Positions 2,722-49,084 of a stretch of 61,060 nt of DNA are shown one piece after another. Both the position numbers and the translations under genes were made by a program. The notes beneath the pieces are model-generated. The model worked only from the letters and a program-made list of their open reading frames with translations. It searched no databases and had not been told where the DNA came from. Position 1 is the first letter of the stretch. Each line of letters opens with the position of its first letter. The stretch lies in NCBI GenBank assembly GCA_038245905.1, contig JBBRRY010000024.1, positions 1 through 61,060 of the forward strand, given 5' to 3'. This DNA comes from Thermoanaerobaculia bacterium (GTDB lineage Bacteria; Acidobacteriota; Thermoanaerobaculia; UBA5066).

Positions 2722-4940
2722 TGTCCAGCATCGTCGACGAAACGGTTCCCCTCACGGCGCCCGCGGACGTGCGTTCTCCGTTCCGGCTGACGGTCGAGGG
2801 AGACGGGCTTGCCGTCCTCGTTTTCGACACGCCGGGCGAGAAGGTGAACAAGTTCTCGACGCCCGTCATGAAGGAGTTCGACCGCGTGCTGGAGACGCTC
2901 GCCGGCCGGTCCGACGTCCGGGCGCTACTCCTTCTCTCCGCGAAACCCGGCATCTTCATCGCCGGCGCGGACGTGAACGAGATCGCGAAGGCCGACCGGA
3001 ACGCGAACCCTGAGATGATCCGGGGACCCCACCGGACCTTCAACAAGCTCGCGAACCTCCCGTTCCCCACGGTGGCCGCGATCGACGGCGCTTGCGTGGG
3101 CGGCGGCTGCGAGACCGCTCTGTCGATGGACTGGCGCCTCATCTCGGACTCGAAAAAGGCGCAAATCGGGCTTCCGGAGATCAAGCTCGGCATTCTGCCG
3201 GCCTGGGGCGGCACGACGCGGCTTCCCCGGATGATCGGCCTCGCGAGCGCCCTCGACATCATTCTCGCGGGCAGGGTGCTCGACGGAAAGCGCGCGAAGA
3301 GGATCGGTCTCGTCGACGAGGTCGTTCCGCAGGCGATCATCGAGGAATGGGCGAAGAATTTTGCTCGAGGAAAATTCGGCACGAAGAAACGCTCGAACGC
3401 AGGGCCGGGGGGCGGTCCCGCGCGGGTCCGGGAACCGAAGCTGGTCGAGAGGCTTCTTGAGGGTCCGGGCAAGGGGATCGTCTTCTCGAAGGCTCGCCAG
3501 GCGGTCCTGAAGGAGACGAAGGGGCACTACCCGGCGCCACTCGCGGCCTTGTCCGTCGTCGAAAAGGGCTTCTCACGGCCGTTTGCGGAGGCGCTCGAGC
3601 TCGAGGTCGAAGGCGTCTCATCGCTCATCGGAACGCCCGTGATGCGGAGCCTCGTGGGCCTGTTCTTCCGGATGGAAGAGGTCAAGAAGGAAACCGGCGT
3701 CGAGGCTTTCGACGGTGCCGGCGCGCGGGTCAAGCCCCGGAAGATCCGGCGGGTCGGCGTCCTCGGTGCCGGCGTCATGGGCGGCGGCATCGCGCAGCTC
3801 GCGGCCGACAAGGGCTTCCCGACACGCATGAAGGACATCAAACCCGAGGCGCTCGCGCTCGGTTTCGCGCAGGCGGCCCGTATCTGGAAAGAGAAGCTCA
3901 AGAAACGGCGGATGACCCGCGCGGAGTTCGCGGCGAAGATGTCGCTCCTCAGCGGCTCGATGGAGTACGCGGGCTTCGACGGCTGTGACATCACGATCGA
4001 GGCCGTGCTCGAGAAGATGTCCGTCAAGCAGGCGGTCCTTGCAGACTGGGAGCACGTCGCGTCGCCGACCGCTATCTTCGCGTCGAACACGTCGACGCTC
4101 CCGATTACCGAGATCGCGGCGAAGGCGGTGCACCCCGAGCGTGTCGTGGGCATGCATTTCTTCAACCCCGTCCACAAGATGCCTCTCGTCGAGATCATCT
4201 ACGGGGAGAAGACGGACCCCGAGGTGACCGCGACGGTCTTCGATCTCGCGAAGAAGATGGGGAAGACGCCGGTCGTCGTGAAGGACGCCCCCGGCTTTCT
4301 CGTGAACCGCATCCTCAGCCCTTACATCGGCGAGGCGGCGCGACTGCTCCTCGAGGGCGCTGACTTCGTCGTCGTCGACAAGGCGATGCGGTCCTTCGGG
4401 ATGCCGGTCGGACCCTTCGAGCTCCTGGACGACGTCGGGATCGACGTCGCCGTGAAAGCGGCCGGGACGATGGCGAGCGCTTTTCCCACGCGGATGCCCG
4501 CGGATCCAGCCCTGGAGAAGCTCGTCGCGAGCGGCCGGATAGGGAGGAAGGCGAAGAAGGGATTTTATTTCTATGAAAAGGACAGGCGCGGCGGGCCGGA
4601 CCCGGCGGTGTATGCCGAGCTGGGGCTCTCTTCACCTTCTAAGAATCTTCCTCTTTCTTCCTCCGAAATCCAGGAACGCCTGATCCTCCCGATGATCAAC
4701 GAGGCGGCGTTCTGCCTCGCGGACGGCATTGTCGCGAGCCCCGCGAAGCTCGATCTCGCGATGATCTTCGGCACGGGATTCCCGCCGTTCCGCGGGGGAC
4801 TCTGCGCCTACGCCGATGCGCTCGGTGCGACAGCGGTCGTCTCCGGGCTCGAGAAACTCACCCGCGAAAAGGGCGCCCGGTTCGCACCGGCTCCGCTGCT
4901 CGTCGAGATGGCAAAGACTGGTAAGAAATTCTTCGTATGA
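2721..4940 (+). CDS. fadJ: fatty acid oxidation complex alpha subunit (enoyl-CoA hydratase / 3-hydroxyacyl-CoA dehydrogenase)
   Basis: Crotonase domain (FIAGAD, GGGCE, LPEIKLG) plus HAD domain (GAGVMGGG, SNTS, GMHFFNP, GFPPFRGG). ATG 2721 overlaps the thiolase stop. Confidence 0.93.
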   Translation: MSSIVDETVPLTAPADVRSPFRLTVEGDGLAVLVFDTPGEKVNKFSTPVMKEFDRVLETLAGRSDVRALLLLSAKPGIFIAGADVNEIAKADRNANPEMIRGPHRTFNKLANLPFPTVAAIDGACVGGGCETALSMDWRLISDSKKAQIGLPEIKLGILPAWGGTTRLPRMIGLASALDIILAGRVLDGKRAKRIGLVDEVVPQAIIEEWAKNFARGKFGTKKRSNAGPGGGPARVREPKLVERLLEGPGKGIVFSKARQAVLKETKGHYPAPLAALSVVEKGFSRPFAEALELEVEGVSSLIGTPVMRSLVGLFFRMEEVKKETGVEAFDGAGARVKPRKIRRVGVLGAGVMGGGIAQLAADKGFPTRMKDIKPEALALGFAQAARIWKEKLKKRRMTRAEFAAKMSLLSGSMEYAGFDGCDITIEAVLEKMSVKQAVLADWEHVASPTAIFASNTSTLPITEIAAKAVHPERVVGMHFFNPVHKMPLVEIIYGEKTDPEVTATVFDLAKKMGKTPVVVKDAPGFLVNRILSPYIGEAARLLLEGADFVVVDKAMRSFGMPVGPFELLDDVGIDVAVKAAGTMASAFPTRMPADPALEKLVASGRIGRKAKKGFYFYEKDRRGGPDPAVYAELGLSSPSKNLPLSSSEIQERLILPMINEAAFCLADGIVASPAKLDLAMIFGTGFPPFRGGLCAYADALGATAVVSGLEKLTREKGARFAPAPLLVEMAKTGKKFFV
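4626..4664 (+). repeat. intragenic TTCnAAGAA motif copy (fadJ)
   Basis: CTCTCTTCACCTTCTAAGAATCTTCCTCTTTCTTCCTCC. Confidence 0.75.
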
Positions 4941-4951
4941 GGGGGGCCGAG

Positions 4952-6733: not shown

Positions 6734-6743
6734 TCGCGATTTC

Positions 6744-8369: not shown

Positions 8370-8430
8370 TCGGGATTCCTCCGTGCCCCCGAGCCTACTT
8401 TGATATCCTCCTTGGCCGGAGGATCGCCAG

Positions 8431-9249: not shown

Positions 9250-9393
9250 GGCTGGCGGGGGGCGCCCCGCATCCCCGGATGTCTCGAAGGCGCCGCGATC
9301 GACACGACACTGAAAAGGAGACCGGAGGATTTCTCCTCGAATACGTGGATGCGGCGTTCGCCGCTATCTGCTGAGGCGAACCTCCCAATCGAC

Positions 9394-11310: not shown

Positions 11311-14058
11311 ATGACGATCAACTCGGGTGTCCGCCTCGGGCCCTATGAGGTCCTGTCTCCCCTCGGCGCCGGAGGGATGGGAGAGGTCTACAGGGCGAAA
11401 GACGTGCGCGTCGACCGGGCGGTGGCCCTGAAGGTACTGCCGGAAGAGCTCTTTGAAAGTGAAGAGAGGAGAGTGCGCTTCGAGCGAGAGGCTCGCATGC
11501 TCGCGAGCCTCAACCATCCGGGAATTGCCGTCCTCTACTCATTCGAAGAAATCCCCGGTCCTTCTCCTTCTTCGACGCGCCACCTCCTCGTCATGGAGCT
11601 CGTCGAGGGAGAAGGCCTCGACCAGAAGGTTTCCTCCGGCCCTCTTCCACTCGAAGAATCTCTTTTGCTGGCGAAACAGATCGCGGACGCGCTGGAAGCG
11701 GCGCACGAGAATGGGATCGTCCACCGGGACCTCAAGCCCGCGAACGTCAAGGTGACGCCCGACGGACGGGTGAAGCTTCTCGACTTCGGCCTCGCGAAGA
11801 TCTTCGAGAGCGACACGATCGCCTCGTCCCCTTCGATCTCCTATTCACCGACGCTCACGGCCCGCGGCACGGCTGCGGGCATGATTCTCGGGACCGCGGC
11901 ATACATGAGCCCGGAGCAGGCTCGCGGCAAGCCGGTCGACAAGCGGACGGACGTCTGGGCGTTTGGGTGCGTGCTCTTCGAAATGCTGACGGGAAAGAGG
12001 GCGTTCGAGGGCGAGACCGTGAGCGACACGCTGGCGGCAATCCTCAGGGGCGAGCCCGACTGGGCGGCGCTGCCGGAGCAGACGCCTGGGGTCGTAAGAA
12101 AGATTCTTAGAAGGTGTTTGCAGCGCGATGCGCGCCTGAGGCTGCACGACATTGCCGATGCCCGGTTGGACCTCGAAGAACTGAGCGCACCGGGCGCGTC
12201 GAGCGCGTCCGGCCAATCACCCTTCGAGGAAGGACAGGTGGGTCCGAGCCCCACGGGAGCAAGCGCGGAACGAGCGAGTCGTGAGCGAGGGAACAGAAAA
12301 TCTCTCTGGATCGCCTGCGGGATTGCGGCCGCGTTCGCGGCCGCGGCGACTGTTTTCGGAGGCTTCGCGTTGCGCTCTCGCAGTCCGCAGCGGGACGCGC
12401 GCGTCGTCCAGTTCGAGGTCCGCGTCCCGGAGGGGGCGGTGTTCGGCAACTCGATGGCGCTTTCGCCCGACGGGCGCCGTCTCGCGTTCGTCGCGTCGGA
12501 CGAGAAGGACGTCGAGCGCCTCTACGTCCGCTCGTTCGACTCCGTCGGCGCCCGGGTCCTCCCCGGAACCGAGGGCGCACGGTTTCCCTTCTGGTCCCCC
12601 GACGGAGCGTCTATCGCGTTCTTCACGGGCGACCGTCTCGCTCGCGTGGGCGTTTCCGGGGGGTCGCCCCAGACGATCTGTCCGGCCACGGACGGCCGTG
12701 GCGGATCCTGGTCCCCCCGCGGCGTCATCGTCTTCGCGCCCGGGACGCGGATGCCGCTCCACCGCGTGAGCGCGATGGGCGGGGTCCCGGCGCTGGTGTC
12801 GGCGTTCGGCTCGAAGGACTTCTCCCACCGCTGGCCGAAAATCCTGCCGGACGGGAGTCACTTCCTCTATCTCTGCATGAGCGATGACGCAGCCCGAGCG
12901 GGCGTGCGTGTCGCGTCGCTCGACGACGCCGAGGACGCGTTCATCGTGGCGTCGCGGGGACGGGCCGACTACGACGCGGGCCGCCTTCTCTACGTGCGCG
13001 AGAGCTCCCTGTACTCGCAGCCTTTCGACGCGGGCCGCCGCAAGCTCTCCGGCGAGCCCGGGCTCGTCGCCGACGGGATCGTCGTCGAGGGAGAGAGCGG
13101 TTTTACCGGCCTCTCGGCCTTCGCGGCGGCCGGGGACGGCGCACTCGTCTACAGGCGCCGCGCGAATCCCCGCCAAAAGCTCACCTGGTTCGACCGCGCA
13201 GGCAGGGTTCTGGGGACGGTGGGGGACCCGGCCGTCATGTCCGAGCCGTTCTGGTTCGCAGGGGGGCAGCGCCTCGGAATCGCGGTGACCGACCGCCGCG
13301 CCGAACTTCTCGACCTCTGGCAGGTCGACCTCGCGCGCGGAACGTGGACGCGCCTCACGTTCGGACCGAAGTCCAACAACACGGGGCTGATCACTCCGGA
13401 CGGAAAGTGGCTCTACTTCTCGTCGAGCCGCGAGGGGCGGATGGGCCTCTTCCGCCGTCCGCTCGACGGGTCCGGTGGCGACGAGCGCGTGCTGGCCTCG
13501 GATGCGGACGTGTACGGCGACTTCGTCAGCCCGGACGGCGCGTGGCTCGTCTACGAATCTCCGGCCGACGCGGGCCGCTACCAGCTCCGGAGGCTCGCGC
13601 TCGCCGGCGACGGCAAGAACCAGCTTCTTCTCGCCATGCCCCAGGCTTCCGTCACGCACTCGTCCCCGTCTCCCGACGGCAGGTTCTTCGCGTACGCCTC
13701 CGACGAGACGGGCCGGGCGGAGGTCTACGTGCAGCGGTTCCCGCCGTCGGGCGGGAAGTGGCAGATCTCGACGGACGGCGGCGACCAGCCGCTCTGGCGC
13801 GCGGACGGCCGCGAGCTTTATTTCCTGTCGACAGACCGGAAGCTCATGGCGGTCGAGCTCTCCCTGGGCGGTGAGGCACAGGTTGGAGTCCCGAAGCAGC
13901 TCTTCCCGATTCGCGTGTCGGCCAACGGGATCTCGGACAACCGTTCGCAATACATCCCGGCCCCGGACGGAAATCGTTTCCTCGTCCTCGCCAACGCGGA
14001 CGACCGGCTCGATCAGCCCGCCGTCGTCGTCCTTAACTGGCCCGCGATGGGAAAATGA
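11311..14058 (+). CDS. Ser/Thr protein kinase K1 (kinase - TM - PD40/TolB-like beta-propeller)
   Basis: GAGGMGEV, VALK, HRDLKPAN, DFG, YMSPEQ; hydrophobic helix; many SPDG repeats; -10 TATACT at 11290-11295. Confidence 0.92.
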   Translation: MTINSGVRLGPYEVLSPLGAGGMGEVYRAKDVRVDRAVALKVLPEELFESEERRVRFEREARMLASLNHPGIAVLYSFEEIPGPSPSSTRHLLVMELVEGEGLDQKVSSGPLPLEESLLLAKQIADALEAAHENGIVHRDLKPANVKVTPDGRVKLLDFGLAKIFESDTIASSPSISYSPTLTARGTAAGMILGTAAYMSPEQARGKPVDKRTDVWAFGCVLFEMLTGKRAFEGETVSDTLAAILRGEPDWAALPEQTPGVVRKILRRCLQRDARLRLHDIADARLDLEELSAPGASSASGQSPFEEGQVGPSPTGASAERASRERGNRKSLWIACGIAAAFAAAATVFGGFALRSRSPQRDARVVQFEVRVPEGAVFGNSMALSPDGRRLAFVASDEKDVERLYVRSFDSVGARVLPGTEGARFPFWSPDGASIAFFTGDRLARVGVSGGSPQTICPATDGRGGSWSPRGVIVFAPGTRMPLHRVSAMGGVPALVSAFGSKDFSHRWPKILPDGSHFLYLCMSDDAARAGVRVASLDDAEDAFIVASRGRADYDAGRLLYVRESSLYSQPFDAGRRKLSGEPGLVADGIVVEGESGFTGLSAFAAAGDGALVYRRRANPRQKLTWFDRAGRVLGTVGDPAVMSEPFWFAGGQRLGIAVTDRRAELLDLWQVDLARGTWTRLTFGPKSNNTGLITPDGKWLYFSSSREGRMGLFRRPLDGSGGDERVLASDADVYGDFVSPDGAWLVYESPADAGRYQLRRLALAGDGKNQLLLAMPQASVTHSSPSPDGRFFAYASDETGRAEVYVQRFPPSGGKWQISTDGGDQPLWRADGRELYFLSTDRKLMAVELSLGGEAQVGVPKQLFPIRVSANGISDNRSQYIPAPDGNRFLVLANADDRLDQPAVVVLNWPAMGK
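12096..12116 (-). repeat. intragenic TTCnAAGAA motif copy (K1 C-lobe)
   Basis: Reverse complement CACCTTCTAAGAATCTTTCTT shares 17 identical nt with the fadJ copy. Confidence 0.75.
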
Positions 14059-16562
14059 CGCTCGAGAAGGGTACCGTCCTCGGGGCGTACGAAATCGTAG
14101 GCCCGCTCGGGGCCGGCGGGATGGGGGAGGTCTACCGGGCGAGAGACGCGAGGCTCGCGAGGGACGTCGCGATCAAGGTGTTGTCGGAAGAGTTCTTCGA
14201 AGGTGAAGAGAGGCGGCAGAGGTTCGAGCGGGAGGCGAAGGCGCTAGCCTCCTTGAACCACCCGAACGTCGCCGCCATCTACTCATTCGAAGAAGCGCCC
14301 TCTTCCTCTTCTCTCTCGTCTTCCCGCCACTTTCTCGTCATGGAGCTCATCGAGGGCGAGACGCTGCGTCATGCCTTCCCACCGGAGCCGCTCGGGACGA
14401 AGCGGATCCTCGAGATCGGGGCGCAGCTCGCGGACGGCCTCGCGAAGGCGCACGCGTCGGGGATCGTCCACCGCGACCTCAAGCCCGAAAACGTCATGGT
14501 GTCCCGTGAAGGCTGGGTGAAGATTCTCGACTTCGGCCTCGCGAAGCTCGCCGAGCCGCGCGGGCAGAACGTCTCGAATCTCGCCACGGCGTCCGGAACG
14601 GTCCCGGGGATGGTGATGGGCACCGTCGGGTACATGTCGCCGGAGCAGGCTGCGGGCCGGCCGGTGGACTTCCGCTCGGACCAGTTCTCCTTCGGGACGA
14701 TGCTTTACGAGCTCGCGACGGGCCGCCGCGCGTTCCAGCGCGACACGAGCGCCGAGACGATCGTCGCGGTCATGCGCGAGGAGCCGGAGCCCATCGTCAA
14801 GCTGAACCCGCGTGTGCCGGCGCCGCTCCGATGGATCGTCGAGCGCTGCCTCGCGAAGGACCCGGAACAGCGCTACGCCTCGACGCGCGACCTCGCGCGC
14901 GACCTCGCGAGCCTGCGCGACCACCTCTCGGAGCTGTCAGGCGAGACGTCCGCGGGCGTCGCGGAGCCCGCGCCCTCGCACCCGACGTTCCAGCGGCTCA
15001 GCTTCCGGCGCGGCACGATCCTCTCGGCGCGGTTCGCACCCGACGGACGGACCGTCGTGTACGGCGCCGCGTGGGAAGGCGAGCCCTGCCGGCTGTTCTC
15101 GACGCGCCCCGAGAGCCCCGAATCCAGCCCTCTGATGTTGCCGGACGCCGAGATCCTGTCGATTTCGCGCACGGGGCAGATGGCGGTCTCGCTCGAGCGG
15201 CGCTGGGCGGGCCGATTCGTCTGGAGCGGCACGCTTTCGCAGGTTCCGCTCTCGGGCGGCGCGCCGCGCGAGCTCCTCGAGGACGTGCACTGGGCGGACT
15301 GGGGGCCCGAGGGCACGAGCCTTGCCGTCGTACGCTCGGTGGCGGGCAAGACCCGGCTCGAGTATCCGATCGGAAAGGTCCTCTACGAGACAGGCGGCTG
15401 GATCAGCCACCCTCGGGTGTCGCCGAAGGGCGACCTCATCGCCTTCCTCGACCATCCGGCCCTCGGCGACGACGAGGGCTCGGTCCTCAGCGTGGACCGG
15501 ACGGGTAAGACAACGGTTCTGTCGAAGGACTGGATCACCGCGTACGGCCTCGCATGGTCGGGCGATGGCAGCGAGATCCTGTTCACGGCGACCCGCGTCG
15601 GCGTCGCGCGCTCGGTTTGGTCCGTCTCGCTCGAGGGCCGCGAGCGGCTCCTCGTGCGGACCCCCGGCGAGCTGACGATCCAGGACGCATCGGCGGACGG
15701 CCGCATCCTCTTGACGAGCGACAACGGGAAGGTCGGGATCATCGGGCGGCCTCCCGGCTCCGACCGGGATCGCGACCTCTCGCTCCTGGACTGGTCGCTC
15801 GTCCGGGATCTCTCGCCGGACGGCAAGCTCCTCCTCTTCGACGAGACGGGCGAGGGGGGCGGCGCCCGGCACGCGCTCTATATGCGGAGTACGGACGGCT
15901 CGCCCGCCGTGCAGCTCGGGTCGGGATGGGCCGGAAGCTTCTCGCCCGACGGCCGATGGGTCGCGTCGACCGGACATGCTCCCGGCGGCCGCGAAATCAC
16001 CCTCCTTCCCGTGAAAGCCGGGGAACCTCGCTCTCTTCCTCGGACCGACCTTGCGATCCACCGCACGTGGTGGCTGCCGGACGGGAAGCGCATCCTCGTC
16101 GCGGCGAACGCGCCCGGAGAAGGGCTCCGTCTCTTCGTCCAGGAGCTCGAAGGCGAGCCCCCACGCCCCATCACGCCGCCGGGGATCGCTCTCGGCTTCT
16201 TTCCGGTCTCACCCGATGGGCGCATCGTCGTGGGACAGGGGCCCGACCGGCATTTCTACGGGTATCCGGTCGAAGGCGGCGACCCCGAGTACGTGCCTGG
16301 GCTCGTCGCCGAGGACAGGCCGATTCGCTTCTCGCCGGATGGCCGCGCCCTTTACGCCTACAGGCGCGGAGAGCTTCCCGCCCGCGTCATCCGCCTCGAT
16401 CTCGAGACTGGCGAGAAGACGACTTCGCACGAGCTGATGCCGGCGGACCCCGCTGGGGTCGTCGAGGTCGTGTCGGTCGCTCTGACCCGCGACGTTTCGT
16501 CATACGCATACAGCTACCACCGAATTCTGTCCGACCTTTTCCTTGTGGAGGGCATTCGATGA
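14055..16562 (+). CDS. Ser/Thr protein kinase K2 with PD40 beta-propeller, no TM helix
   Basis: Intact kinase motifs; SPDG repeats; ATGA overlap with K1; no hydrophobic segment between the domains. Confidence 0.92.
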   Translation: MTLEKGTVLGAYEIVGPLGAGGMGEVYRARDARLARDVAIKVLSEEFFEGEERRQRFEREAKALASLNHPNVAAIYSFEEAPSSSSLSSSRHFLVMELIEGETLRHAFPPEPLGTKRILEIGAQLADGLAKAHASGIVHRDLKPENVMVSREGWVKILDFGLAKLAEPRGQNVSNLATASGTVPGMVMGTVGYMSPEQAAGRPVDFRSDQFSFGTMLYELATGRRAFQRDTSAETIVAVMREEPEPIVKLNPRVPAPLRWIVERCLAKDPEQRYASTRDLARDLASLRDHLSELSGETSAGVAEPAPSHPTFQRLSFRRGTILSARFAPDGRTVVYGAAWEGEPCRLFSTRPESPESSPLMLPDAEILSISRTGQMAVSLERRWAGRFVWSGTLSQVPLSGGAPRELLEDVHWADWGPEGTSLAVVRSVAGKTRLEYPIGKVLYETGGWISHPRVSPKGDLIAFLDHPALGDDEGSVLSVDRTGKTTVLSKDWITAYGLAWSGDGSEILFTATRVGVARSVWSVSLEGRERLLVRTPGELTIQDASADGRILLTSDNGKVGIIGRPPGSDRDRDLSLLDWSLVRDLSPDGKLLLFDETGEGGGARHALYMRSTDGSPAVQLGSGWAGSFSPDGRWVASTGHAPGGREITLLPVKAGEPRSLPRTDLAIHRTWWLPDGKRILVAANAPGEGLRLFVQELEGEPPRPITPPGIALGFFPVSPDGRIVVGQGPDRHFYGYPVEGGDPEYVPGLVAEDRPIRFSPDGRALYAYRRGELPARVIRLDLETGEKTTSHELMPADPAGVVEVVSVALTRDVSSYAYSYHRILSDLFLVEGIR
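14186..14213 (-). repeat. intragenic TTCnAAGAA motif copy (K2 N-lobe)
   Basis: Reverse complement CCTCTCTTCACCTTCGAAGAACTCTTCC. Confidence 0.72.
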
Positions 16563-30014: not shown

Positions 30015-30015
30015 A

Positions 30016-36530: not shown

Positions 36531-37996
36531 GGCGCGTCTCGGTTCTCGTGCTCGCGTGCGCAGTGCTCGCCGCCGCGGCTCCGCCGCTAGCCGCCGCCGA
36601 GCGCCCTCACGCGCCTTCTAAGAAGTTTTCCTCTTCCTCTTCTTCTTCTTCTCTCTCCCCGGTCGACACCCTCGTCACCGCGGCCCACGTTCTGACGATG
36701 GACGGTGCGGATCGCGTCTTCTCTCCGGGCGCCGTCGCGATCAACGGCGGTGCCATCGTGGCCGTCGGCAAGCCCGCGGATCTCCTCGCTCTCTATTCTC
36801 CGAAGCAGAGAATTCTCCGTCCGAACGCGGTCGTCCTGCCCGGCCTCGTCAACACGCACACGCACGCTGCGATGAACCTCCTGCGCGGAATCGCGGACGA
36901 CTTGCCGCTCATGGACTGGCTCACGAAGTTCATCTTCCCGGCCGAAGGCAAGAACGTCTCACCGGCCTTCGTGAAGGCCGGCACTCTCCTCGCCTGCGCC
37001 GAGATGGTCCGCGGGGGCACGACGACGTTCGCGGACATGTACTACTACGAGTCGGATGTCGCGGCGGCGGTGGACGAATGCGGGATGCGCGCCGTCCTCG
37101 GCGAGACGTGGCTCGACTTCCCGGTGCCGGATCACAAGGACCTCGCGGAGTCGATCTCGACGACGCGGGCGTTCCTTGAGAAGTGGAAGGGCCATCCGCG
37201 TGTGATCCCCGCCGTGGCCCCGCACGCGCCGTACACGAACTCGGAAGGGTCTCTCCGTGCGGCGTACGATCTCGCCCGCGAATTCCATGCGCCGCTCCTC
37301 ATCCACCTCTCCGAGACGCGGGACGAGCAGAAGCAGATTCTCGAGAAGCACGGGACGACGCCCACGAAGTGGCTCGAGTCCATCGGCTTCCTGGGGGCGA
37401 ACGTCCTCGCGGCCCACGGAGTCTGGCTCGACGCCGACGACATGCGCATCCTCGCCGAGCGCCACGTGGGTCTTTCCCACAATCCCGAGTCGAACATGAA
37501 GCTCGCGTCGGGCATCGCGCCCGTCGTCGCGGAGCGCAAGGCGGGAATCGTCGTCGGCCTCGGGACGGACGGGGTCGCGGGCTCGAACAACGATCTCGAC
37601 ATGTGGGAGGCGATGGATTTCGCCGGCAAGCTCGCGAAAGTCTCGACAATGGACCCGACCGCGCTGCCTGCAAAGGACCTCCTCCGGATGGCGACGATCG
37701 AGGGCGCGCGCGCGATGAAGCTCGACGACCGGATCGGGTCCCTGGAGGCCGGCAAGCGAGCGGATCTCGTGGCCGTGGATCTCGTCCGGGCGCGGACGCA
37801 CCCCATCTGGGACCTGTATTCGACGCTCGTCTACTCGGTCAAGGAGAGCGACGTAACACTCACGATGGTCGAGGGCAAGGTCCTCTGGGACGGGACGCGC
37901 GTCACGACGCTCGACGAGGCGAGGGTCATCCGGGACGCCGACGAATGGCGGAGGAAGGTGGCGGCGTCACTCGCGGCGCTAGCCGGGAAGCCATGA
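36527..37996 (+). CDS. amidohydrolase, MtaD/SAH-deaminase-like, with N-terminal signal peptide
   Basis: NTHTH, APHAPY, IHLSET, HNPESNMKLASG, GTDG..SNN.LD; GTG 36527 overlaps the cdd stop. Confidence 0.85.
   Translation: MRRVSVLVLACAVLAAAAPPLAAAERPHAPSKKFSSSSSSSSLSPVDTLVTAAHVLTMDGADRVFSPGAVAINGGAIVAVGKPADLLALYSPKQRILRPNAVVLPGLVNTHTHAAMNLLRGIADDLPLMDWLTKFIFPAEGKNVSPAFVKAGTLLACAEMVRGGTTTFADMYYYESDVAAAVDECGMRAVLGETWLDFPVPDHKDLAESISTTRAFLEKWKGHPRVIPAVAPHAPYTNSEGSLRAAYDLAREFHAPLLIHLSETRDEQKQILEKHGTTPTKWLESIGFLGANVLAAHGVWLDADDMRILAERHVGLSHNPESNMKLASGIAPVVAERKAGIVVGLGTDGVAGSNNDLDMWEAMDFAGKLAKVSTMDPTALPAKDLLRMATIEGARAMKLDDRIGSLEAGKRADLVAVDLVRARTHPIWDLYSTLVYSVKESDVTLTMVEGKVLWDGTRVTTLDEARVIRDADEWRRKVAASLAALAGKP
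36614..36660 (+). repeat. intragenic TTCnAAGAA motif copy with long pyrimidine tail (deaminase)
   Basis: CCTTCTAAGAAGTTTTCCTCTTCCTCTTCTTCTTCTTCTCTCTCCCC. Confidence 0.7.
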
Positions 37997-39872: not shown

Positions 39873-42518
39873 TTGAGTCTCACGGCCGGAACCCGTCTGG
39901 GCGCCTACGAGGTGCTCGGCTCGCTCGGTGCGGGCGGGATGGGGGAGGTCTATCGGGCCCGTGATCCGCGCGTCGACAGATCCGTGGCGCTGAAGGTCCT
40001 GCCGGAAGAGTTCTTCGGGGACAAGGAACGGACGGCCCGCTTCGAGCGCGAGGCGCGCACGCTCGCGAGTCTGAACCACCCTGGGATCGCGGCTCTGTAC
40101 TCATTCGAAGAAATCTCGGGTCGGCATGTCCTCGTCATGGAGCTCGTCGAGGGTGAGACGCTCCGCGAGCCGCTCTGTTCCGGACCTCTGCCGGCGAAGC
40201 GCGCCCTCGAGATCGCCGTACAGATCGCGCGGGGCCTGGCCGCGGCGCACGAGAAGAGCGTCGTCCACCGGGATCTGAAGCCCGAGAACGTGATCCTGAC
40301 GAAGGATGGCCGGGTCAAGATTCTCGACTTCGGCCTCGCAAAGCTGGCGCAGCCGCTCGCGGCCGGTGAGTCGCTCTCCGCGGCCGGCACGCTCTCCAAC
40401 CTGACAGAGGCGGGCGCGGTCTTCGGAACGGTTTCCTACATGTCGCCCGAGCAGACACGCGGGGAAGCCGTGGACCACCGGTCGGACATCTTCAGCTTCG
40501 GCACGATGCTCTACGAGATGCTCTCGGGGACGAACCCGTTCCGGTCCGCCACGGCGGCCGAGACGATGGCCGCGATCCTCAGGCACGATCCGCCGCCGCT
40601 GTCCGACGCGCCGACTCCCCCTCCGCCCGCGCTCGGCGCGATCGTCCTGCGCTGCCTCGAGAAGAAACGCGAGGCGCGCTTTCAGTCGACGCTCGATCTC
40701 GCGTTCGCGCTCGAGGCCCTGTCCGCGGCGTCGGCGCCCGCGCGTGCGCTCGCGGCTATGGCTGAGACTCCTCGCCCGAGATCGCGCATGGCCATCCTCG
40801 CGCTCGCGGCCGTCCTCGTGGGTGCGGGGGTCACGGCTGGAGTCCTGAGGGCGCGGGCGCCTCGAGCCGTCCCCGCTCCGACCATCCGCTTCGCGGTCCC
40901 GCCGCCCGAGGGAGGGGCGTTCGCATGGTCGGGCGAGGGGCGCACGCTCGGAGTTTCTCCGGACGGGGCGCGGCTCGCCTGGGTGGCGAGGGATGCGCGC
41001 GGCGAGAGGCGGATCTGGCTCCGGCCGCTCGAGTCCCTCGAGGCTCGGGCCCTCGCAGGGACGGAAGGCGCGTCGTCCTTCTTCTGGTCGCCCGACGGGG
41101 CCGCGCTCGCGTTTTTCGCCGGAGACAAGCTCAAGCGCCTCGACCTCCCGTCGGGCGCTCCCGTCCCGATTGCCGACGTTTCGGCGGGCGGCGGGAAGTC
41201 GGGGACGTGGGGAGCCGAGGACATCCTCTTCGGAGGCGTCCAGGGTGAGGCCCTCTATCGTGTCCCGCATTCGGGCGGGACGCCCGCTGTCGTCGTGAAA
41301 CCGGATGTGGCGCGCGGAGAGACGCGGGTCATCTGGCCGACCTTTCTCCCGGACGGCCGGCGCTTTCTCTACGTCTCGCGGCGCGGGAACGAGGGCACGC
41401 TGATGCTCGCGGAGCCGGACAAGGCGCCTCGGGCGGTCATGCCCGACGTGTCCGACACGGCTTACGTCGAGCCCGGGATCCTCGTGTTCGCGCGGGAGGG
41501 AACTCTTTTCGCGCAAGCCTTCGACGTGCGCACCGGGCGCATGACCGGCTCGGCGGCGGCGCTTGCGAAGAGCATCCGGTACTTCATGTCCACCGGCGGC
41601 GCGGGCTTCGCGGTTTCGCGGAACGGCACTCTCCTGTACGTCGTGCAGGAGGACGTGAGCCGGCTCGAGCGATTCGACCGCGCCGGACGGACCGGAGGGC
41701 GGGTCTCGACCGCGGGTTCCTATCTGAGCCTGAGTCTCTCGCCGGACGGGCGCCGCGTTCTCTACGATCGCGCGCGGCCCGGCATCTGGACGTACGACAT
41801 CTGGTCGTTCGACTTCGAGCGGGGCGTCGAGAGCCGCGTGACTTCGGACATCGGGAGCGAGTTCTCCCCGGTCTGGCTCCCGGAGGGAAGAAGCTTCATC
41901 TACTCGGCCGTCGCCGGGTCCAATCCTCGTCTCTATCGGATGGACCTCGCGACGGGGAAGAGCGAGGAGGTCGTGCCGGGGGCGGGCTTCCAGGAGGCAT
42001 CGGACGTTTCCGCGGACGGACGGTTCCTCGCGTATTCGGAACGTCAGGGCCGAAACTTTACATTGCGGACGGTCGCGCTCTCCGGGCCGCGAACGCCCGT
42101 CGTTCTCGGAGGGAACCCGTCCGTTGACTATGGGGCACCCCGGTTCTCCCCGGACGGGCGGTTCCTCGCCTTCCTCTGCGACGAATCGGGCCGCCGGGAA
42201 GCCTACGTGATGCCCTACCCGGGGCCGGGCGAGAAGACGCGCGTCTCGCCCGCCGGCGCGAGGCATTTGTGCTGGCCGCGCGGAACCGGCGAGATCCTGT
42301 TCCTCTCGGGCGACGGACACATGACGTCCGTCGCGGTGAGCACGTCCCCGGTGCTCGCAATCGGCCGTCCGGTCGTGCTCTTCCCGACGGATCCGGCCTG
42401 GGGCGGGTTCGACGTGTCGGCGGACGGGAAGCAATTTCTCGCCGTCGTCCCGGAGATCGACGGAAACCGGTACCCGGCGACCGTCGTCGTGAACGGCGCA
42501 ACGGCAGCTTCGAAGTAG
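39873..42518 (+). CDS. Ser/Thr protein kinase K6 (kinase - TM - PD40 propeller)
   Basis: Intact kinase motifs; TM; SPDG repeats; TTG start after -10 TAGACT (39858-39863). Confidence 0.92.
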   Translation: MSLTAGTRLGAYEVLGSLGAGGMGEVYRARDPRVDRSVALKVLPEEFFGDKERTARFEREARTLASLNHPGIAALYSFEEISGRHVLVMELVEGETLREPLCSGPLPAKRALEIAVQIARGLAAAHEKSVVHRDLKPENVILTKDGRVKILDFGLAKLAQPLAAGESLSAAGTLSNLTEAGAVFGTVSYMSPEQTRGEAVDHRSDIFSFGTMLYEMLSGTNPFRSATAAETMAAILRHDPPPLSDAPTPPPPALGAIVLRCLEKKREARFQSTLDLAFALEALSAASAPARALAAMAETPRPRSRMAILALAAVLVGAGVTAGVLRARAPRAVPAPTIRFAVPPPEGGAFAWSGEGRTLGVSPDGARLAWVARDARGERRIWLRPLESLEARALAGTEGASSFFWSPDGAALAFFAGDKLKRLDLPSGAPVPIADVSAGGGKSGTWGAEDILFGGVQGEALYRVPHSGGTPAVVVKPDVARGETRVIWPTFLPDGRRFLYVSRRGNEGTLMLAEPDKAPRAVMPDVSDTAYVEPGILVFAREGTLFAQAFDVRTGRMTGSAAALAKSIRYFMSTGGAGFAVSRNGTLLYVVQEDVSRLERFDRAGRTGGRVSTAGSYLSLSLSPDGRRVLYDRARPGIWTYDIWSFDFERGVESRVTSDIGSEFSPVWLPEGRSFIYSAVAGSNPRLYRMDLATGKSEEVVPGAGFQEASDVSADGRFLAYSERQGRNFTLRTVALSGPRTPVVLGGNPSVDYGAPRFSPDGRFLAFLCDESGRREAYVMPYPGPGEKTRVSPAGARHLCWPRGTGEILFLSGDGHMTSVAVSTSPVLAIGRPVVLFPTDPAWGGFDVSADGKQFLAVVPEIDGNRYPATVVVNGATAASK

Positions 42519-42531
42519 CCGCCGCTCATTC

Positions 42532-43176: not shown

Positions 43177-43343
43177 CGGGTTCCTCCGATTATTGAACCG
43201 AAAAGGCAGATTTGCGGCACGAATACGGAAGGGCTCAGCTACACGGAGGGCCCATGTTTCTGCAGGTCCACAAGGCCCTTCGAGACACTCGCGACGCCCG
43301 AACCAAGCCACGAAGAACTCAACCGTTCCGAAAGGAGACACTC

Positions 43344-44159: not shown

Positions 44160-44232
44160 GGAGATCTGACGACCATTTCCGTCCAGGTCCGTATCTTCGC
44201 AATGTCGTTCTGGAGTTCTCGAAGCTGATGCG

Positions 44233-44261
44233 ACCCCCGCGACCACGCGGGGGTTTGTGTT
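44233..44261 (+). terminator. probable intrinsic terminator
   Basis: Perfect 9-bp stem ACCCCCGCG/CGCGGGGGT, 4-nt loop, followed by TTGTGTT. Confidence 0.6.
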
Positions 44262-44319
44262 GAAATGCGGGCGAGCCTTTTCCTTGAAGGCTATGGTCAA
44301 ATGATGCCGTCATTCGCCC

Positions 44320-46995: not shown

Positions 46996-47033
46996 CGCTT
47001 GACTCCGGCATCTGCCTCGGCCCATAGGGAATG
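46992..47033 (+). pseudogene. decayed 5' remnant of a further kinase gene
   Basis: GTG overlapping the K7 stop reads MTLDSGICLGP*GM, matching the family start M(T/S)LxxGTRLGPYEI. Confidence 0.65.
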
Positions 47034-47056
47034 AGCCCTTCGTTTATCCTCCGGCG

Positions 47057-49084
47057 GTGCTGTACCGCCTGGAAAACGTCCGCAAGAGCTTCGGGACGAA
47101 GGACGTCCTCGTGGACGCCACGTGGCAGCACGACCCGGGCCGGATCGTGGGCTTGGTCGGGCGGAACGGGGCGGGGAAGTCGACCGTCCTGAAAATCGTC
47201 CTGTCTCTCGTCGAGCCCGACGGCGGAAAGCTTTACGTTGCGGGGGGCACGACGTTCGCCTCCCTCGATCAGGCGGTCGAACCGGAAGGCGACGAGCCGC
47301 TCCGCACCTTCGTCGCGCGCGCGCAGGAGCCGCTTCTCGCCCTCGAGCGGACGATGCGGCGCCTCGAGGAAGAAATCGTCACGCACGGGGCCGATGGCGA
47401 TCGCGCGGCGCTCGACGCCCTCCTCGCGGAGCACGACGAGGTGCGCGAGCACTTCGAGCGGGCAGGCGGGTACGAGGCGGACTCGCGCATCGACCGTGTC
47501 CTGGACGGCGTCGGGCTCGCCCGTCCGTTGTGGGAGCGGCCCGTCGGCGAGCTTTCGGGCGGGCAGAAGCATCGCACCCAGATCGCGCGCCTCCTCCTGA
47601 CGGATGCGTCCGTCCTGCTCCTCGACGAACCCACGAACCATCTCGACGTCTCGGGAATCGAGTTTCTCGAGAGCTGGCTCGTGGAGCGCAAGTCAAGCGC
47701 CGGCCTCTCGGCGCTCGTCGTTTCGCACGACCGCCGCTTCCTCGACGCCGTGGCCGATCGCATTGTCGAGGTTGCCCACGGCCGCCTCGAGGACTACCCG
47801 GGCGACTACGCGACGTACCGGAAGCTGAAGGCCGAACGGGACCGGCTGCGGGCCAAGGAGGCCGAGAAGCAGCGGCAGATGATCGAGAAGACCGAGGATT
47901 TCATCCGCCGCAACATTGCGGGCCAGAAGACGAAGCAGGCTCAGGGGCGGCGAAAGATGCTTGCCCGGATCGAGCGCATCGAGGCGCCTCGCGAGGACGC
48001 GAACGACGTCTCGATCCGTTTCGAGGAGGCGCGCGTCTCAGGGGGCCGCGTCCTCGAAGCGAAAAAGATCGTTCCCGGATATCCCGAGACAGGCCCGCTG
48101 ACGGCGCCGGTGTCGTTCCTTCTGCGCCGCGGCGACCGGATGGCGCTCTGGGGGCCGAACGGCTGCGGCAAGACGACGCTCCTCAAGAACCTCGCGCGCG
48201 TTCTCCCGCCGCTCTCGGGCTCCGCCGTGCCGGGCGTCGGCGTCCTCGTCGGGTACTACGACCAGGAGATGGGCGACCTCGCGCCGAACGCGACGGCGCT
48301 CGACGTCGTGATGGACCTCGACCCGACGATGAAGGAGAACGACGCGCGGGACTTCCTCGCCCTCTTCGACTTTCGGGGCGACGAGGTGTTTCAGAAGATC
48401 GCGACGCTCTCCGGCGGTGAGAAGGGCCGCCTGTCGCTCGCGCGCATCGTCTTCGGAGGCGCGAACTTCCTGCTCCTCGACGAGCCCACGAATCATCTCG
48501 ACCTCGACGCGCGAGAGCAGCTCGAGGACGCCCTGGAAGCGTTCGAAGGCGCGATCGTCTTCGTGAGTCACGACCGCTGGTTCGTGGACCGCATCGCGAC
48601 GCAGATCCTCGAGATCGGCCAGGGGGGCGAGGTCGACGTGCACGACGGCAACTATTCAGATCTGCTTCGGAGGAAGAAGGAGAAAGAAGGGAAGAGAGAA
48701 GGAAAGAAGGAAGAAGGGATTTCTTTGAATGGTGAAGAGGGCCGCGGCGCGCCCCGTGCCGCCGGTGCGCGACCCGCCACCGGATCCCCGCCCTCTTCCC
48801 CTTCTAAGAAATCTTCCTCTTCCTCTCCCGACCGCGCCGCCGACAGGCGGCGCGCGAAGAACAAGAAACTTCTCTCTGATCTCGAGGAGGCGATTTCGGG
48901 GCTCGAAGGCGAGATTCAGACGCTCGATCTTTCGCTTTCCAACCCGGACGTCTATCGCGACGGCGAGAAGGCGCGGCACGTGACCGCGGCGCGCGAGAAT
49001 GCGCGCCGCACGCTCGAGGCGAAGATGTGGGAGTGGGAAGAGACGTCGCGGAAGATCCAGGTGGGCGACGCGGTGACGGCGTGA
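47057..49084 (+). CDS. ABC-F family ATPase (Uup/YdiF-like)
   Basis: Two ABC domains (GRNGAGKS, LSGGQK, LLDEPTNHLD; GPNGCGKT, LSGGEK), no TM, C-terminal coiled coil. Confidence 0.93.
   Translation: MLYRLENVRKSFGTKDVLVDATWQHDPGRIVGLVGRNGAGKSTVLKIVLSLVEPDGGKLYVAGGTTFASLDQAVEPEGDEPLRTFVARAQEPLLALERTMRRLEEEIVTHGADGDRAALDALLAEHDEVREHFERAGGYEADSRIDRVLDGVGLARPLWERPVGELSGGQKHRTQIARLLLTDASVLLLDEPTNHLDVSGIEFLESWLVERKSSAGLSALVVSHDRRFLDAVADRIVEVAHGRLEDYPGDYATYRKLKAERDRLRAKEAEKQRQMIEKTEDFIRRNIAGQKTKQAQGRRKMLARIERIEAPREDANDVSIRFEEARVSGGRVLEAKKIVPGYPETGPLTAPVSFLLRRGDRMALWGPNGCGKTTLLKNLARVLPPLSGSAVPGVGVLVGYYDQEMGDLAPNATALDVVMDLDPTMKENDARDFLALFDFRGDEVFQKIATLSGGEKGRLSLARIVFGGANFLLLDEPTNHLDLDAREQLEDALEAFEGAIVFVSHDRWFVDRIATQILEIGQGGEVDVHDGNYSDLLRRKKEKEGKREGKKEEGISLNGEEGRGAPRAAGARPATGSPPSSPSKKSSSSSPDRAADRRRAKNKKLLSDLEEAISGLEGEIQTLDLSLSNPDVYRDGEKARHVTAARENARRTLEAKMWEWEETSRKIQVGDAVTA
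48669..48829. repeat. inverted pair of TTCnAAGAA motifs with purine/pyrimidine tails inside the ABC-F gene
   Basis: Purine run + GATTTCTTTGAATGGTGAAGAGGG (to 48741), 49 bp GC-rich spacer, CCCTCTTCCCCTTCTAAGAAATCTTCCTCTTCCTCTCCC. Confidence 0.78.

Follow-up and report, generated by a model that had tools for sequence, protein, structure and literature searches.

A directional DNA word in divergent pairs, a candidate self-DNA recognition signal in one Acidobacteriota genus

The window analysed here, a 61,060-nt stretch of contig JBBRRY010000024.1, comes from a soil or sediment acidobacterium of an uncultured genus of Thermoanaerobaculia (Acidobacteriota). Pfam domains bear out the gene names of the original prediction, which had reported a recurrent AT-rich motif inside a FadJ-like ECH+3HCDH gene, Pkinase+PD40 kinases, a GT2 gene, an amidohydrolase and an ABC-F gene. 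The 11 copies it called clear and the five it called weaker all lie where it placed them, and 16 of 16 score at least 14 bits, our cut-off for a copy, with a position weight matrix (PWM) trained on the whole genome. The window holds six copies beyond that list, at 11542+, 12223+, 14286+, 27777+, 31437+ and 40104+, and the 17 nt said to be common to the fadJ and kinase copies on opposite strands are indeed present (CACCTTCTAAGAATCTT). Sites are given below as extent, core coordinate with motif strand (+ or -), and PWM bits at that core.

The fadJ-like gene has a weak left arm (4547..4589, core 4577-, 15.9 bits) and, after the first 3HCDH C-terminal domain, a right arm read as SSPSKNLPLSSSE (4625..4667, core 4637+, 28.9 bits). 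The relative G035 and G034 both conserve the right arm; at this position the sister-genus orthologue has a GC-rich stretch of almost equal length, which points to substitution. Kinase 1 carries an antisense arm (LPEELFESEE) 146 nt into the gene, compared with paralogue and outgroup (11427..11469, core 11457-, 21.1 bits), and its partner YSFEEIPGPSPSS (11530..11572, core 11542+, 26.9 bits), whose core already exists in the outgroup and whose CT tail is an insertion or expansion. Further along are a second same-strand arm (site 3, PLPLEESLL; 11638..11680, core 11650+, 20.4 bits), an antisense arm (site 4, KILRRC; 12082..12124, core 12112-, 20.2 bits) and the latter's weak partner (site 5, SPFEEG; 12211..12253, core 12223+, 15.4 bits).

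In kinase 2, an antisense arm (EEFFEGEER; 14171..14213, core 14201-, 24.9 bits) pairs with YSFEEAPSSSS (14274..14316, core 14286+, 22.1 bits). Kinase 4 has an antisense arm (EEFFEDEER; 27662..27704, core 27692-, 26.7 bits), its partner (27765..27807, core 27777+, 21.1 bits), a second same-strand arm (27873..27915, core 27885+, 20.3 bits), and a further pair formed by an antisense EILRKC arm (28320..28362, core 28350-, 19.2 bits) and LPFEEN (28443..28485, core 28455+, 26.2 bits). A weak antisense arm of kinase 5 (31322..31364, core 31352-, 16.8 bits) is paired with 31425..31467 (core 31437+, 19.1 bits), and kinase 6 has an arm at the YSFEE position (site 2; 40092..40134, core 40104+, 24.2 bits).

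The GT2 left arm lies in a membrane segment (LFFLEGEL; 30876..30918, core 30906-, 28.6 bits); the outgroup reads LTLLDGLL there, gap-free, again indicating substitution. Its right arm, PLFTFKEILLSS, 46 bp from its partner (30940..30982, core 30952+, 30.6 bits), is in part an insertion relative to the outgroup. In the ABC-F linker, a left arm with an AG-rich tail (KKEKEGKREGKKEEGISLNGEE; 48668..48741, core 48729-, 27.4 bits) recurs at this position in 19 of 22 orthologous loci of the genus. The right arm with its CT tail (PSSPSKKSSSSS; 48790..48832, core 48802+, 30.6 bits) precedes the C-terminal coiled-coil domain; its DNA is conserved, the spacer is hypervariable, and the arm is missing from four of four more distant orthologues. 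A single arm with a long TCT tail stands in the amidohydrolase gene (36604..36660, core 36616+, 15.3 bits). The gene caller labels this site intergenic, yet an open frame runs through it, and the site probably encodes APSKKFSSSSSSSS, a linker that joins a signal peptide to the amidohydrolase domain; in the gene model starting at 36533, the Amidohydro_1 match (Pfam) begins at residue 100.

Genome-wide, the consensus reads, in order, pyrimidine-rich flank, C, TTC[T>G/A]AAGAAA, (A)TCTTC and CT-rich tail. G is nearly absent from the motif strand between -10 and about +30, and conservation around the motif ends beyond about 30 nt. The 3.8-Mb genome contains 774 copies, compared with 103 in a Markov-4 simulated genome; they form AT-rich islands within 68% GC DNA at about 1 per 5 kb, with tenfold differences in density among contigs (0.4-4.5 per 10 kb). 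When coding sequences were shuffled with each protein and each gene's codon usage preserved, 15.9 sense and 7.4 antisense in-gene copies of at least 20 bits appeared, against 187 and 165 observed; at 24 bits or more, the figures were 3.8 and 1.4 against 114 and 102. By this genome-wide count, the in-gene motif is enriched 12-70 times over the shuffles, and 12-22 times at the 20-bit threshold. In the window itself, CYTTCDAAGAA occurs nine times where 0.11 are expected, and none of 100 shuffles reached 9.

Coding sequence holds 582 of the 774 copies (75%), and intergenic density is five times the in-gene density. The use of several frames and both strands, first noticed in the window, extends across the genome: all six frames carry copies (142/57/113 sense, 81/80/109 antisense), and the two DNA strands are used equally. 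Of 192 intergenic copies, 106 have T as the centre base, as against just 10 of 142 and 3 of 80 copies for the two frames in which T gives TAA or TAG; G or A replaces it only where T would create a stop codon. Six frames, stop avoidance, the excess over shuffles and third-position conservation together uphold the original claim that the constraint acts on nucleic acid rather than protein, although the label "second code" adds no testable content. The motif is thus a recognition word at the DNA level, directional and about 25-30 nt long. Its placement is unrelated to transcription: of the copies in tandem intergenic regions, 57 are directed at a gene start and 65 at a gene end, and densities per kb are 0.85 in tandem, 0.83 in convergent and 0.47 in divergent regions.

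More than half of the copies (430 of 774) form divergent pairs, 25-300 bp apart. The usual unit is a back-to-back dyad, with a minus-strand arm, 25-215 bp of ordinary DNA and a plus-strand arm, tails outward; the spacers are mutually unrelated and often conserved host coding sequence. There are 214 such units, on average one per roughly 18 kb, with both arms inside genes in 159, and lysA alone carries three. The minus-then-plus order described for the window is strong genome-wide, with 193 adjacent -+ pairs within 200 bp against eight +- pairs at 51-200 bp; divergent pairing is over-represented about 20 times, and convergent pairing is at chance level. In nested arrays, polarity is uniform within each side (-++ 22, --+ 17, ---+ 3). 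About a third of sites have no partner, but a weak divergent one lies beside a further 25-32% of "single" sites, as against 6% with a convergent one. The arms of a unit do not co-vary, so that each is an independent site, and dyad spacing has no helical phasing.

Comparison among genomes shows the motif to be lineage-restricted, with a gradient in copy number. The exact 12-mer occurs 21-210 times per genome throughout the genus (28 of 28 genomes) and 1-16 times in seven of eight genomes of the sister genus, and is absent from 27 of 27 genomes in eight other genera of the family and from 12 of 12 in two other families. Its recurrence throughout the genus makes an assembly artefact, an objection raised at the outset, an unlikely source. 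Orthologue alignment, proposed earlier to separate insertion from rewriting, gave mainly in-place substitution: 35 of 45 site cores align ungapped to the sister-genus orthologue, where 43 of 45 counterparts score under 8 bits. Gaps longer than 6 nt contain eight of the 45 cores, and gaps of at least 7 nt contain eight of the 45 tails. On these alignments, the sites arose mostly through point substitution where proteins tolerate change.

Once formed, sites persist. Two species with 79% nucleotide identity have 48 of 57 sites in common (49 of 61 in the reverse direction), and third-position identity is 0.69 in the motif core against 0.53-0.58 in the flanks. Between-species divergence is higher, not lower, near sites, and we therefore see no sign of recent exchange around them. 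Genes with at least 90% identity have no copies in 35 kb, compared with 0.41-0.54 per kb in genes at 60-80%; accessory genes have two copies in 33.1 kb against 75 in 293.6 kb.

Among the three candidates of the original prediction, the uptake-sequence-like one appears to fit this accumulation pattern best. We tentatively favour, with less than even confidence, a self-DNA recognition signal of the uptake-sequence type (DUS/USS-like) whose dyad architecture would be new. Under this reading, some part of the apparatus for DNA uptake or recombination would prefer word-carrying DNA, so that better-matching alleles would be taken up and recombined more often. Molecular drive would then build up the word in DNA that is long resident and weakly constrained, irrespective of strand, transcription and reading frame, with purifying selection on proteins limiting its possible positions. 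The dyad might reflect a two-site (dimeric) receptor, or else a secondary constraint on single strands, in which a leading purine arm can pair with the pyrimidine arm that follows it. The genome encodes core competence proteins (ComEC, DprA, a ComEA-like HHH_3 protein and two secretins), but ComEC is also present in 12 of 12 motif-free outgroup genomes, which makes these genes non-discriminating. A ComP_DUS-family receptor was found in none of 63 genomes, in a search that gave no match in any control genome either. A simple uptake drive predicts even spacing, and the tight divergent pairing speaks against it; the high positional conservation is just as compatible with plain purifying selection on a structural role.

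Such a role, close to the nucleoid or chromosome-organising site among the original candidates, is the substance of the most serious rival, which we regard as possible but doubtful: the arms would be directional binding sites of a lineage-specific chromosomal protein, one protomer per arm in a fixed direction, maintained by ordinary purifying selection. The dyad would then be a polar barrier or loading unit that bounds, traps or launches, in both directions, a factor travelling along DNA, for example an SMC-type loop extruder, a helicase-nuclease or a spreading nucleoid-protein filament. It is arranged like divergent CTCF sites at domain borders or opposed Ter arrays. The roughly twentyfold divergent excess with convergent pairs at chance, the polarity of nested arrays, the weak divergent partners of single sites (25-32% versus 6%), the independence of the arms, the conserved positions, the indifference to transcription and the spacing of roughly 18 kb per unit are all consistent with this. 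A parallel is HIP1, a hyper-abundant motif for which its authors argue a nucleoid-structure role (PMC5861425). Against it, the binder is purely hypothetical, tenfold ranges in copy number within the genus (21-210) and in density among contigs (0.4-4.5 per 10 kb) are odd for a fixed architectural set, spacing lacks helical phasing, and accessory and conserved genes are both avoided, as by a slowly accumulating word. We know of no bacterial architectural protein with hundreds of long in-gene consensus sites.

We consider it unlikely that the word is a Chi-like recombination or repair signal, read from one side by a RecBCD/AddAB-type helicase-nuclease that it would switch from degradation to RecA loading, with pairs serving both approaches. 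The word is polar, lineage-specific and frame-independent, its copy number is comparable to the about 1000 Chi sites of E. coli, divergent pairs would give two-way coverage, and depletion in accessory DNA would suit a self marker. In G035, 15 of 15 exact 12-mers lie on one strand of a 400-kb stretch adjoining a GC-skew sign change, but the same stretch is balanced at PWM level (73 vs 72). In the present genome, the motif is not a replication-skewed signal: orientation relative to GC skew is 315 vs 314 for all copies and 30 vs 34 for exact 12-mers, and the co-oriented arm scores better in 98 units vs 81 (p = 0.19). Moreover, known Chi sequences are 5-8 nt long, and a word of 25 nt or more exceeds them.

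A structural element in RNA or single-stranded DNA, in which the arms pair into a long stem enclosing the spacer and act on mRNA processing or stability, Rho loading or a single-stranded DNA intermediate, seems distinctly improbable. Read 5' to 3' on either strand, a purine arm comes first and a pyrimidine arm second, an order that would suit a 5'-to-3' process; these arms are able to pair with each other. Of five window units, three (z = -4.9, -3.1 and -2.4) form much more stable folds than shuffled sequences, and the other two have z = -1.5 and +1.1. However, complementarity within a unit does not exceed that between arms of different units, about a third of sites are partnerless, orientation is unrelated to gene direction, and no Rfam family matches the motif.

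A mobile or formerly mobile miniature repeat (REP/REPIN, MITE or an in-frame insertion like Rickettsia palindromic elements, one of the original candidates) is very improbable and largely refuted already. In its favour, the arms have inverted orientation, insertion relative to the outgroup accounts for some arms and many tails (8/45 cores and 8/45 tails in gaps), and CT tails undergo expansion, reaching 19 Ser codons in one kinase; nevertheless, the ungapped substitutions (35/45 cores), the unrelated and often conserved coding spacers, the end of conservation at about 30 nt and the failure to find a Y1/RAYT transposase in this 96%-complete genome speak against a REP/RAYT repeat and a palindromic-element-like insertion. 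Reverse transcriptase was likewise not found here, and is present in only four of 28 genus genomes. A promoter, terminator or inverton is scarcely credible: the copies are AT-rich islands in GC-rich DNA, their divergent pairing is reminiscent of divergent promoters and their inverted repetition of invertons, but tRNA genes have canonical TTGAC-N17-TAnAAT promoters with the motif upstream of just 1 of 50 tRNA/tmRNA genes, divergent intergenic regions have the lowest density of all, and copies are oriented at random relative to gene starts; inversion of in-gene segments (75% of copies, including the three lysA units) would destroy essential enzymes, and the joints listed from contigs of four runs, weak evidence since contigs only, include no strand-changing one.

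The self-DNA uptake reading is best judged against the known uptake sequences. Findlay and Redfield (PMC2817400) report that USS and DUS likewise concentrate in poorly conserved genes and are depleted in accessory genes, and inverted pairs are common among them according to a 2025 preprint. Those pairs, as described there, are closely spaced stem-loops in terminators, whereas here both arms lie inside genes in 159 of 214 units, and the arms are 25-215 bp apart. The present word is also longer than DUS/USS cores and about 4-5 times sparser than the counts tabulated in PMC2817400. If the uptake reading is true, this would be an uptake-type signal with a new dyad architecture, belonging to one Acidobacteriota genus.

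The word that recurs through the window is found across the genome (3,797,265 bp in 113 contigs, 67.8% GC). All 16 copies listed in the original prediction were recovered in the window as it had placed them. Genome-wide, the 9-mer TTCTAAGAA occurs 149 times with directional and conserved flanks: position -2 is C in 142 of the 149 copies, G is near-absent between -10 and +15 around the core, and the core is followed on its 3' side by A(A)TCTTC, with a wobble of 0-2 nt, and then by a CT-rich tail. Each copy, or arm, extends over about 60 nt, 70-84% pyrimidine on one strand, and is interrupted by the AT-rich core. We represented the word by a position-weight matrix spanning positions -10 to +9, refined on the genome, and counted copies scoring at least 14 bits. 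This gave 774 copies, about one per 5 kb with balanced strand counts, the commonest cores being TTCTAAGAA (147), TTCAAAGAA (118) and TTCGAAGAA (112). A Markov-4 simulated genome yielded 103 matches, and the reversed matrix yielded 328, a control contaminated by the pyrimidine richness of both flanks. The window contains 9 occurrences of CYTTCDAAGAA, for which the expected number is 0.11. Applied to the AT-rich DNA of a Fusobacteriaceae ABC-F locus (L029), the matrix gave 12 scattered matches of 14-24 bits, and it is therefore meaningful only in GC-rich genomes.

Most copies lie inside genes. According to gene calls from our own codon-usage model, which placed 3174 genes on 93% of the genome and is crude, above all in its start codons, 312 of the 774 copies are in sense orientation in genes, 270 are antisense and 192 are intergenic; the 582 genic copies (75%) occupy all six reading frames. 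The core centre is T in 106 of the 192 intergenic copies. It is T in just 10 of 142 copies in the sense frame TTC NAA GAA and in 3 of 80 in the antisense frame where T reads TAG, with G or A instead in both. This avoidance of T in stop-making frames shows that those frames are truly translated, and that the DNA word is primary and the protein accommodates it. As a null, we used 20 replicates of synonymous-codon shuffling that preserved every protein and each gene's codon usage. At 20 bits or more, 187 sense and 165 antisense copies were observed compared with 15.9 and 7.4 in the shuffles, and at 24 bits or more 114 and 102 compared with 3.8 and 1.4. Enrichment over a codon-shuffled null, on which the original prediction had staked its claim, is thus present. 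Intergenic density per kb was 0.85 in tandem, 0.83 in convergent and 0.47 in divergent spacers, and tandem intergenic copies pointed toward the gene start in 57 cases and toward the gene end in 65. A single tRNA gene has the word upstream, a tRNA-Ser at G000:C2:171900-172030 in this genome; a co-oriented copy scoring 29 bits lies 41 nt before the gene and is paired with a divergent copy at 180 nt.

The copies are also ordered with respect to one another. Adjacent neighbours in minus-then-plus order, tails outward, form 256 pairs with a median core-to-core distance of 106 bp, and 193 of these pairs fall within 200 bp; plus-then-minus neighbours at 51-200 bp number 8, about the chance level. Such divergent units, 214 in total, hold 430 of the 774 copies, and among 220 strong copies that appear single, 25-32% have a weaker divergent partner and 6% a convergent one. 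Larger clusters preserve this polarity (-++ 22, --+ 17, -+-+ 10, ---+ 3). The spacers, 25-215 bp long, are unrelated, ordinary GC-rich sequence and often conserved coding sequence. The arms of one unit are no more similar than arms taken from different units, and arm spacing showed neither a 10.5-bp (helical) nor a 3-bp (codon) periodicity. One five-copy cluster (-+-++), at G000:C40:15810-16255, lies about 1 kb upstream of a ComEC competence-domain match (C40:17273-18061).

The proteins of the window illustrate how differently the word is read. In the FadJ-like protein it appears as SSPSKNLPLSSSE, after the first 3HCDH C-terminal domain; in the GT2 glycosyltransferase as LFFLEGEL and LFTFKEILLSS, in membrane segments; in the ABC-F protein as ...KKEEGISLNGEE...PSSPSKKSSSSS, in the linker preceding the C-terminal domain; and in the amidohydrolase as APSKKFSSSSSSSS, between a probable signal peptide and the amidohydrolase domain. 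The likely start of the amidohydrolase gene is near 36533, where it overlaps the stop of the gene before it, which we take to encode a cytidine deaminase; the N-terminus read from 36533 would be signal-peptide-like (VRRVSVLVLACAVLAAAAPPLAAA) and would continue into a poly-Ser linker encoded by the motif tail. The gene caller began this gene at 36698, so that the site at 36616 was called intergenic and is probably coding. Seven paralogous Ser/Thr kinase genes lie within 36 kb of the window (11311-46995), at 11311-14058, 14055-16562, 19582-22173, 27546-30014, 31212-33875, 39873-42518 and 44320-46995, and relatives carry similar arrays. Pkinase and PD40 domains were confirmed in the two of the seven that were scanned. 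The word occurs at the same domain positions in five of the seven, read as LPEE(F/L)FE(G/S)EE, YSFEEIPGSS, ILR(R/K)C and PFEE, and is lacking from the genes starting at 19582 and 44320. The densest region of the genome is an ordinary operon of ispE, lysA (with three units), dapD, dapA, dapB, an aspartokinase gene and asd, as named by eye from their translations. The case illustrates the extent to which a DNA-level signal can reshape proteins: housekeeping enzymes and kinases here contain PSKK-polySer, FLEGEE and ILRK segments as a result, and the low-complexity inserts that it creates may be misread by annotators.

Comparison among relatives shows a restricted distribution. The exact 12-mer CCTTCTAAGAAA, with 76 copies here, occurs at 21-210 copies per genome in 28 of 28 other same-genus genomes and at 1-16 copies in 7 of 8 genomes of the sister genus, these being metagenome-assembled genomes of kin that are not independent of one another. 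None of 27 genomes from eight other genera in the family had it, nor did any of 12 genomes from two further families of the order (G019 and G024 among these 12 being unpublished). The 12-mer read backwards, as a control, occurred 0-3 times. The 16 copies in one sister-genus genome have the full consensus and mostly form divergent pairs. Of its 11 mapped strong sites, 10 fall on a site of the present genome; the system is therefore older than the genus. These copy numbers would reflect either a 10-40-fold expansion in the genus or decay in the sister genus.

To follow the origin of individual sites, we sampled 480 kb from each of two genomes: G035, of the same genus (160 matrix matches), and G031, of the sister genus and lacking the word (17 matrix matches). 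The sites compared were in-gene copies of at least 17 bits with single-copy orthologue alignments over all 20 positions, multi-copy kinases being excluded. In G035, the word (at least 14 bits) stands at the aligned place for 48 of 57 sites, and in the reverse direction for 49 of 61; in G031, the aligned place scores below 8 bits for 43 of 45. Against G031, 35 of 45 sites align without a gap across the 20-nt core window, 8 have it inside a gap exceeding 6 nt, and 36 of 45 have an ungapped tail. Most sites therefore arose by rewriting in place rather than by insertion, and the suggestion that they might be in-frame insertions resembling Rickettsia palindromic elements (RPEs) was not borne out. 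In fadJ, GLPVPSGP-KAPPEEI of the sister genus corresponds to GLSSPSKNLPLSSSEI here at about equal length, and in the GT2 gene LTLLDGLL corresponds to LFFLEGEL. In the kinases, at least five paralogue clades show a change from outgroup FFEDKD (TTCTTCGAGGAC) to FFEGEE (TTCTTTGAAGGTGAAGAG), and outgroup FSFEEISG became YSFEEIPGSS(S)nPSS, the CT tail being a variable-length expansion. At the syntenic position 33046 in a kinase of another genome (G034; L064-L067, reverse-complemented), the CT tail after YSFEE encodes about 19 Ser-rich residues (SSFSSSSSSSSSSSSSTS), so that CT tails behave like slippage-prone microsatellites. Of 22 same-genus loci, 18 have the ABC-F unit with both arms and 4 with one arm (one of these four being truncated and one partly masked), and the unit was found in none of 4 more distant orthologues; its arm DNA is conserved and its spacer hypervariable.

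The sites are kept in places where the surrounding protein varies. Overall nucleotide identity in alignments of this genome and G035 is 79.4%, and at third positions it is 61.4%. Identity falls to 70-72% overall and to 53-58% at third positions in the flanks of 56 sites, yet stands at 68.8% at third positions inside the core of these sites. At protein identities of 90% or more between the two genomes, 35 kb of genes held 0 matches, and the density per kb was 0.10 at 85-90% protein identity, 0.17 at 80-85%, 0.54 at 75-80% and 0.41 at 60-75%. Within syntenic blocks, genes without an orthologue had 2 matches in 33.1 kb compared with 75 in 293.6 kb of genes with one. The word is a DNA-level, directional and lineage-restricted signal, born by substitution, kept in place and blind to transcription, and it is concentrated where proteins tolerate change and missing from accessory DNA.

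Uptake sequences of the DUS/USS type are described, in the available text of PMC2817400, as concentrated in poorly conserved genes and residues and as lacking from genes without homologues in relatives. Because the accumulation pattern of the word matches this description, we rank first the reading that it is a self-DNA recognition signal of uptake type, a proposal by analogy that we hold tentatively. The genome encodes ComEC, DprA, a ComEA-like protein and two secretins, but these competence genes do not discriminate, as they are also present in relatives free of the motif. ComP_DUS (PF16732) matched 0 of 63 genomes, the control genomes likewise giving no match. The tight intragenic divergent pairing is a point that the uptake reading fails to explain.

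That pairing is better explained if the arms are directional protein sites forming two-way units, a reading that we regard as possible but doubtful. Back-to-back, nested arms recall the two-way barriers of opposed Ter arrays and divergent CTCF sites. However, this is a candidate reading, and we know of no bacterial precedent for directional protein sites on a scale of hundreds of copies. In a more specific form, which we consider unlikely, the dyads would be two-way polar stations for a DNA-translocating machine, placed every ~10-20 kb in coding DNA like divergent CTCF boundaries or opposed Ter arrays, and read by a protein dating from the common ancestor of the two acidobacterial genera. About 30 word-bearing genomes, together with close relatives without the word, offer a handle for finding the reading machinery.

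A Chi-like signal is improbable. The word shares with Chi, KOPS, opposed Ter arrays and divergent CTCF sites the property of being directional inside genes irrespective of frame, but it is far longer than Chi or KOPS and has no replication strand skew in this genome. With GC skew serving as a proxy only for replication direction, 315 copies were co-oriented and 314 anti-oriented (629 of 774 copies having a usable skew window), exact 12-mers divided 30 to 34, and the co-oriented arm outscored its partner in 98 units and was outscored by it in 81 (p = 0.19). Replication polarity was accordingly rejected as an explanation here. In G035, a 400-kb stretch (G035:C1:2195001-2595000, L124-L143) that lies immediately to the right of a GC-skew sign change at ~2.05-2.1 Mb carries 15 of 15 exact 12-mers on the plus strand. 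Its matrix-level matches are balanced (73 plus, 72 minus, mostly paired), so the plus arm is consistently the better one in that stretch, a bias not seen in the present genome.

Still less probable is a single-strand structure. Folding of five window units gave z values of -4.9, -3.1, -2.4, -1.5 and +1.1 relative to shuffles, and the better-than-shuffle folding of three units follows from the inversion of the consensus, with nothing more needed. A search of the window against Rfam 15 returned a sole match, mir-188 at 10199-10290, at chance level (E = 0.48) and away from all sites.

A mobile repeat is highly improbable. REPs are extragenic palindromes spread by RAYT, and RPEs are whole insertions of 100-150 bp with conserved sequence. 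The word resembles REP/BIME and REPIN elements in its hundreds of copies, often in inverted pairs with a spacer, and RPEs in being repeat DNA translated within variable segments of host proteins; unlike REPs, however, 75% of its copies are genic, the arm is non-palindromic beyond TTC-N3-GAA and the spacers are unrelated, and unlike RPEs, most sites are ungapped rewriting of existing codons (35/45). The REP-associated transposase that the original prediction proposed to look for had no counterpart, as Y1 transposase/RAYT (PF01797) had no match in this 96%-complete genome, and MITE, REP and RPE origins were rejected on the unrelated spacers, the finding that arms of one unit resemble each other no more than those of different units, the predominance of substitutions and the lack of a RAYT match. 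Writing by a retron or reverse transcriptase was also rejected, RVT_1 being found in 4 of 28 same-genus genomes and not in this one. Reverse-transcriptase genes are scarce in the two word-bearing genera (4 of 28 and 0 of 8 genomes) and common elsewhere in the family (15 of 27), where genomes are also larger.

Promoter, terminator or inverton functions are equally remote, since copies have no fixed orientation or distance to gene starts or ends as a sigma-70 promoter or intrinsic terminator would, tRNA genes carry TTGAC-N17-TAnAAT as a housekeeping promoter and the word lies upstream of only 1 of 50 tRNA/tmRNA genes, and a terminator or rut site was rejected on the unbiased orientation and lack of excess in convergent spacers. 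Among the joints listed for contigs of four DNA runs, none changed strand; those seen were cross-links between kinase paralogues. In run X1, which may be the source DNA, contigs end at or beside units at 30933-30962 and 36532-36660 of the window, and reads seem to break off in the TCT repeat (36622-36660). Short-read assembly graphs apparently branch at the shared word. We leave the remaining probability to something not considered here.

Hyper-abundant lineage-specific DNA words are rare, and the known cases have each opened a field (DUS/USS in uptake, Chi and KOPS in repair and segregation, and HIP1, which is unresolved). No description of the present word was found in full-text searches covering the main text of openly accessible papers; among the matches listed for the TTCTAAGAA core, none concerned bacteria with the motif, and among those for Thermoanaerobaculia, none concerned genomic repeats. 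HIP1 (GCGATCGC) of cyanobacteria is likewise hyper-abundant, genic and intergenic, conserved in position and unrelated to peptide, RNA or regulation, and in the available text of PMC5861425 its function is unresolved, the authors arguing for selection and a nucleoid role. HIP1 is, however, a perfect 8-bp palindrome tied to methyltransferases, without direction, tail or pairing rule. The likeness to DUS/USS, as far as the available text of the sources goes (PMC2817400; 10.1101/2025.10.24.684340), lies in the following: a lineage-specific word in hundreds of copies on both strands, genic in all usable frames with stop-making frames avoided, located at poorly conserved positions, arising by substitution, often in inverted pairs and, as in USS, built of a core plus a compositionally biased flank. 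In contrast, the host belongs to another phylum, Acidobacteriota, the consensus is longer (25-30 nt plus the CT tail) and the density lower (~1 per 5 kb). Inverted pairs are frequent in DUS/USS, and the pairs described in the available part of 10.1101/2025.10.24.684340 are tight terminator stem-loops, whereas those of the word are divergent, 25-215 bp apart and mostly intragenic (both arms genic in 159 of 214 units), and copies are not in excess in convergent spacers. If the uptake reading is true, this would be the first uptake-type signal in Acidobacteriota, so far as our literature search shows, and one with a two-site architecture. The word is a clean new case from an uncultured soil and sediment lineage, and three of its features are absent from the known ones: a directional 25-30-nt consensus carrying a pyrimidine tail, divergent pairing at 25-215 bp that is almost obligatory, and an origin that can still be seen, the word being sparse in the sister genus and expanded 10-40 times here.
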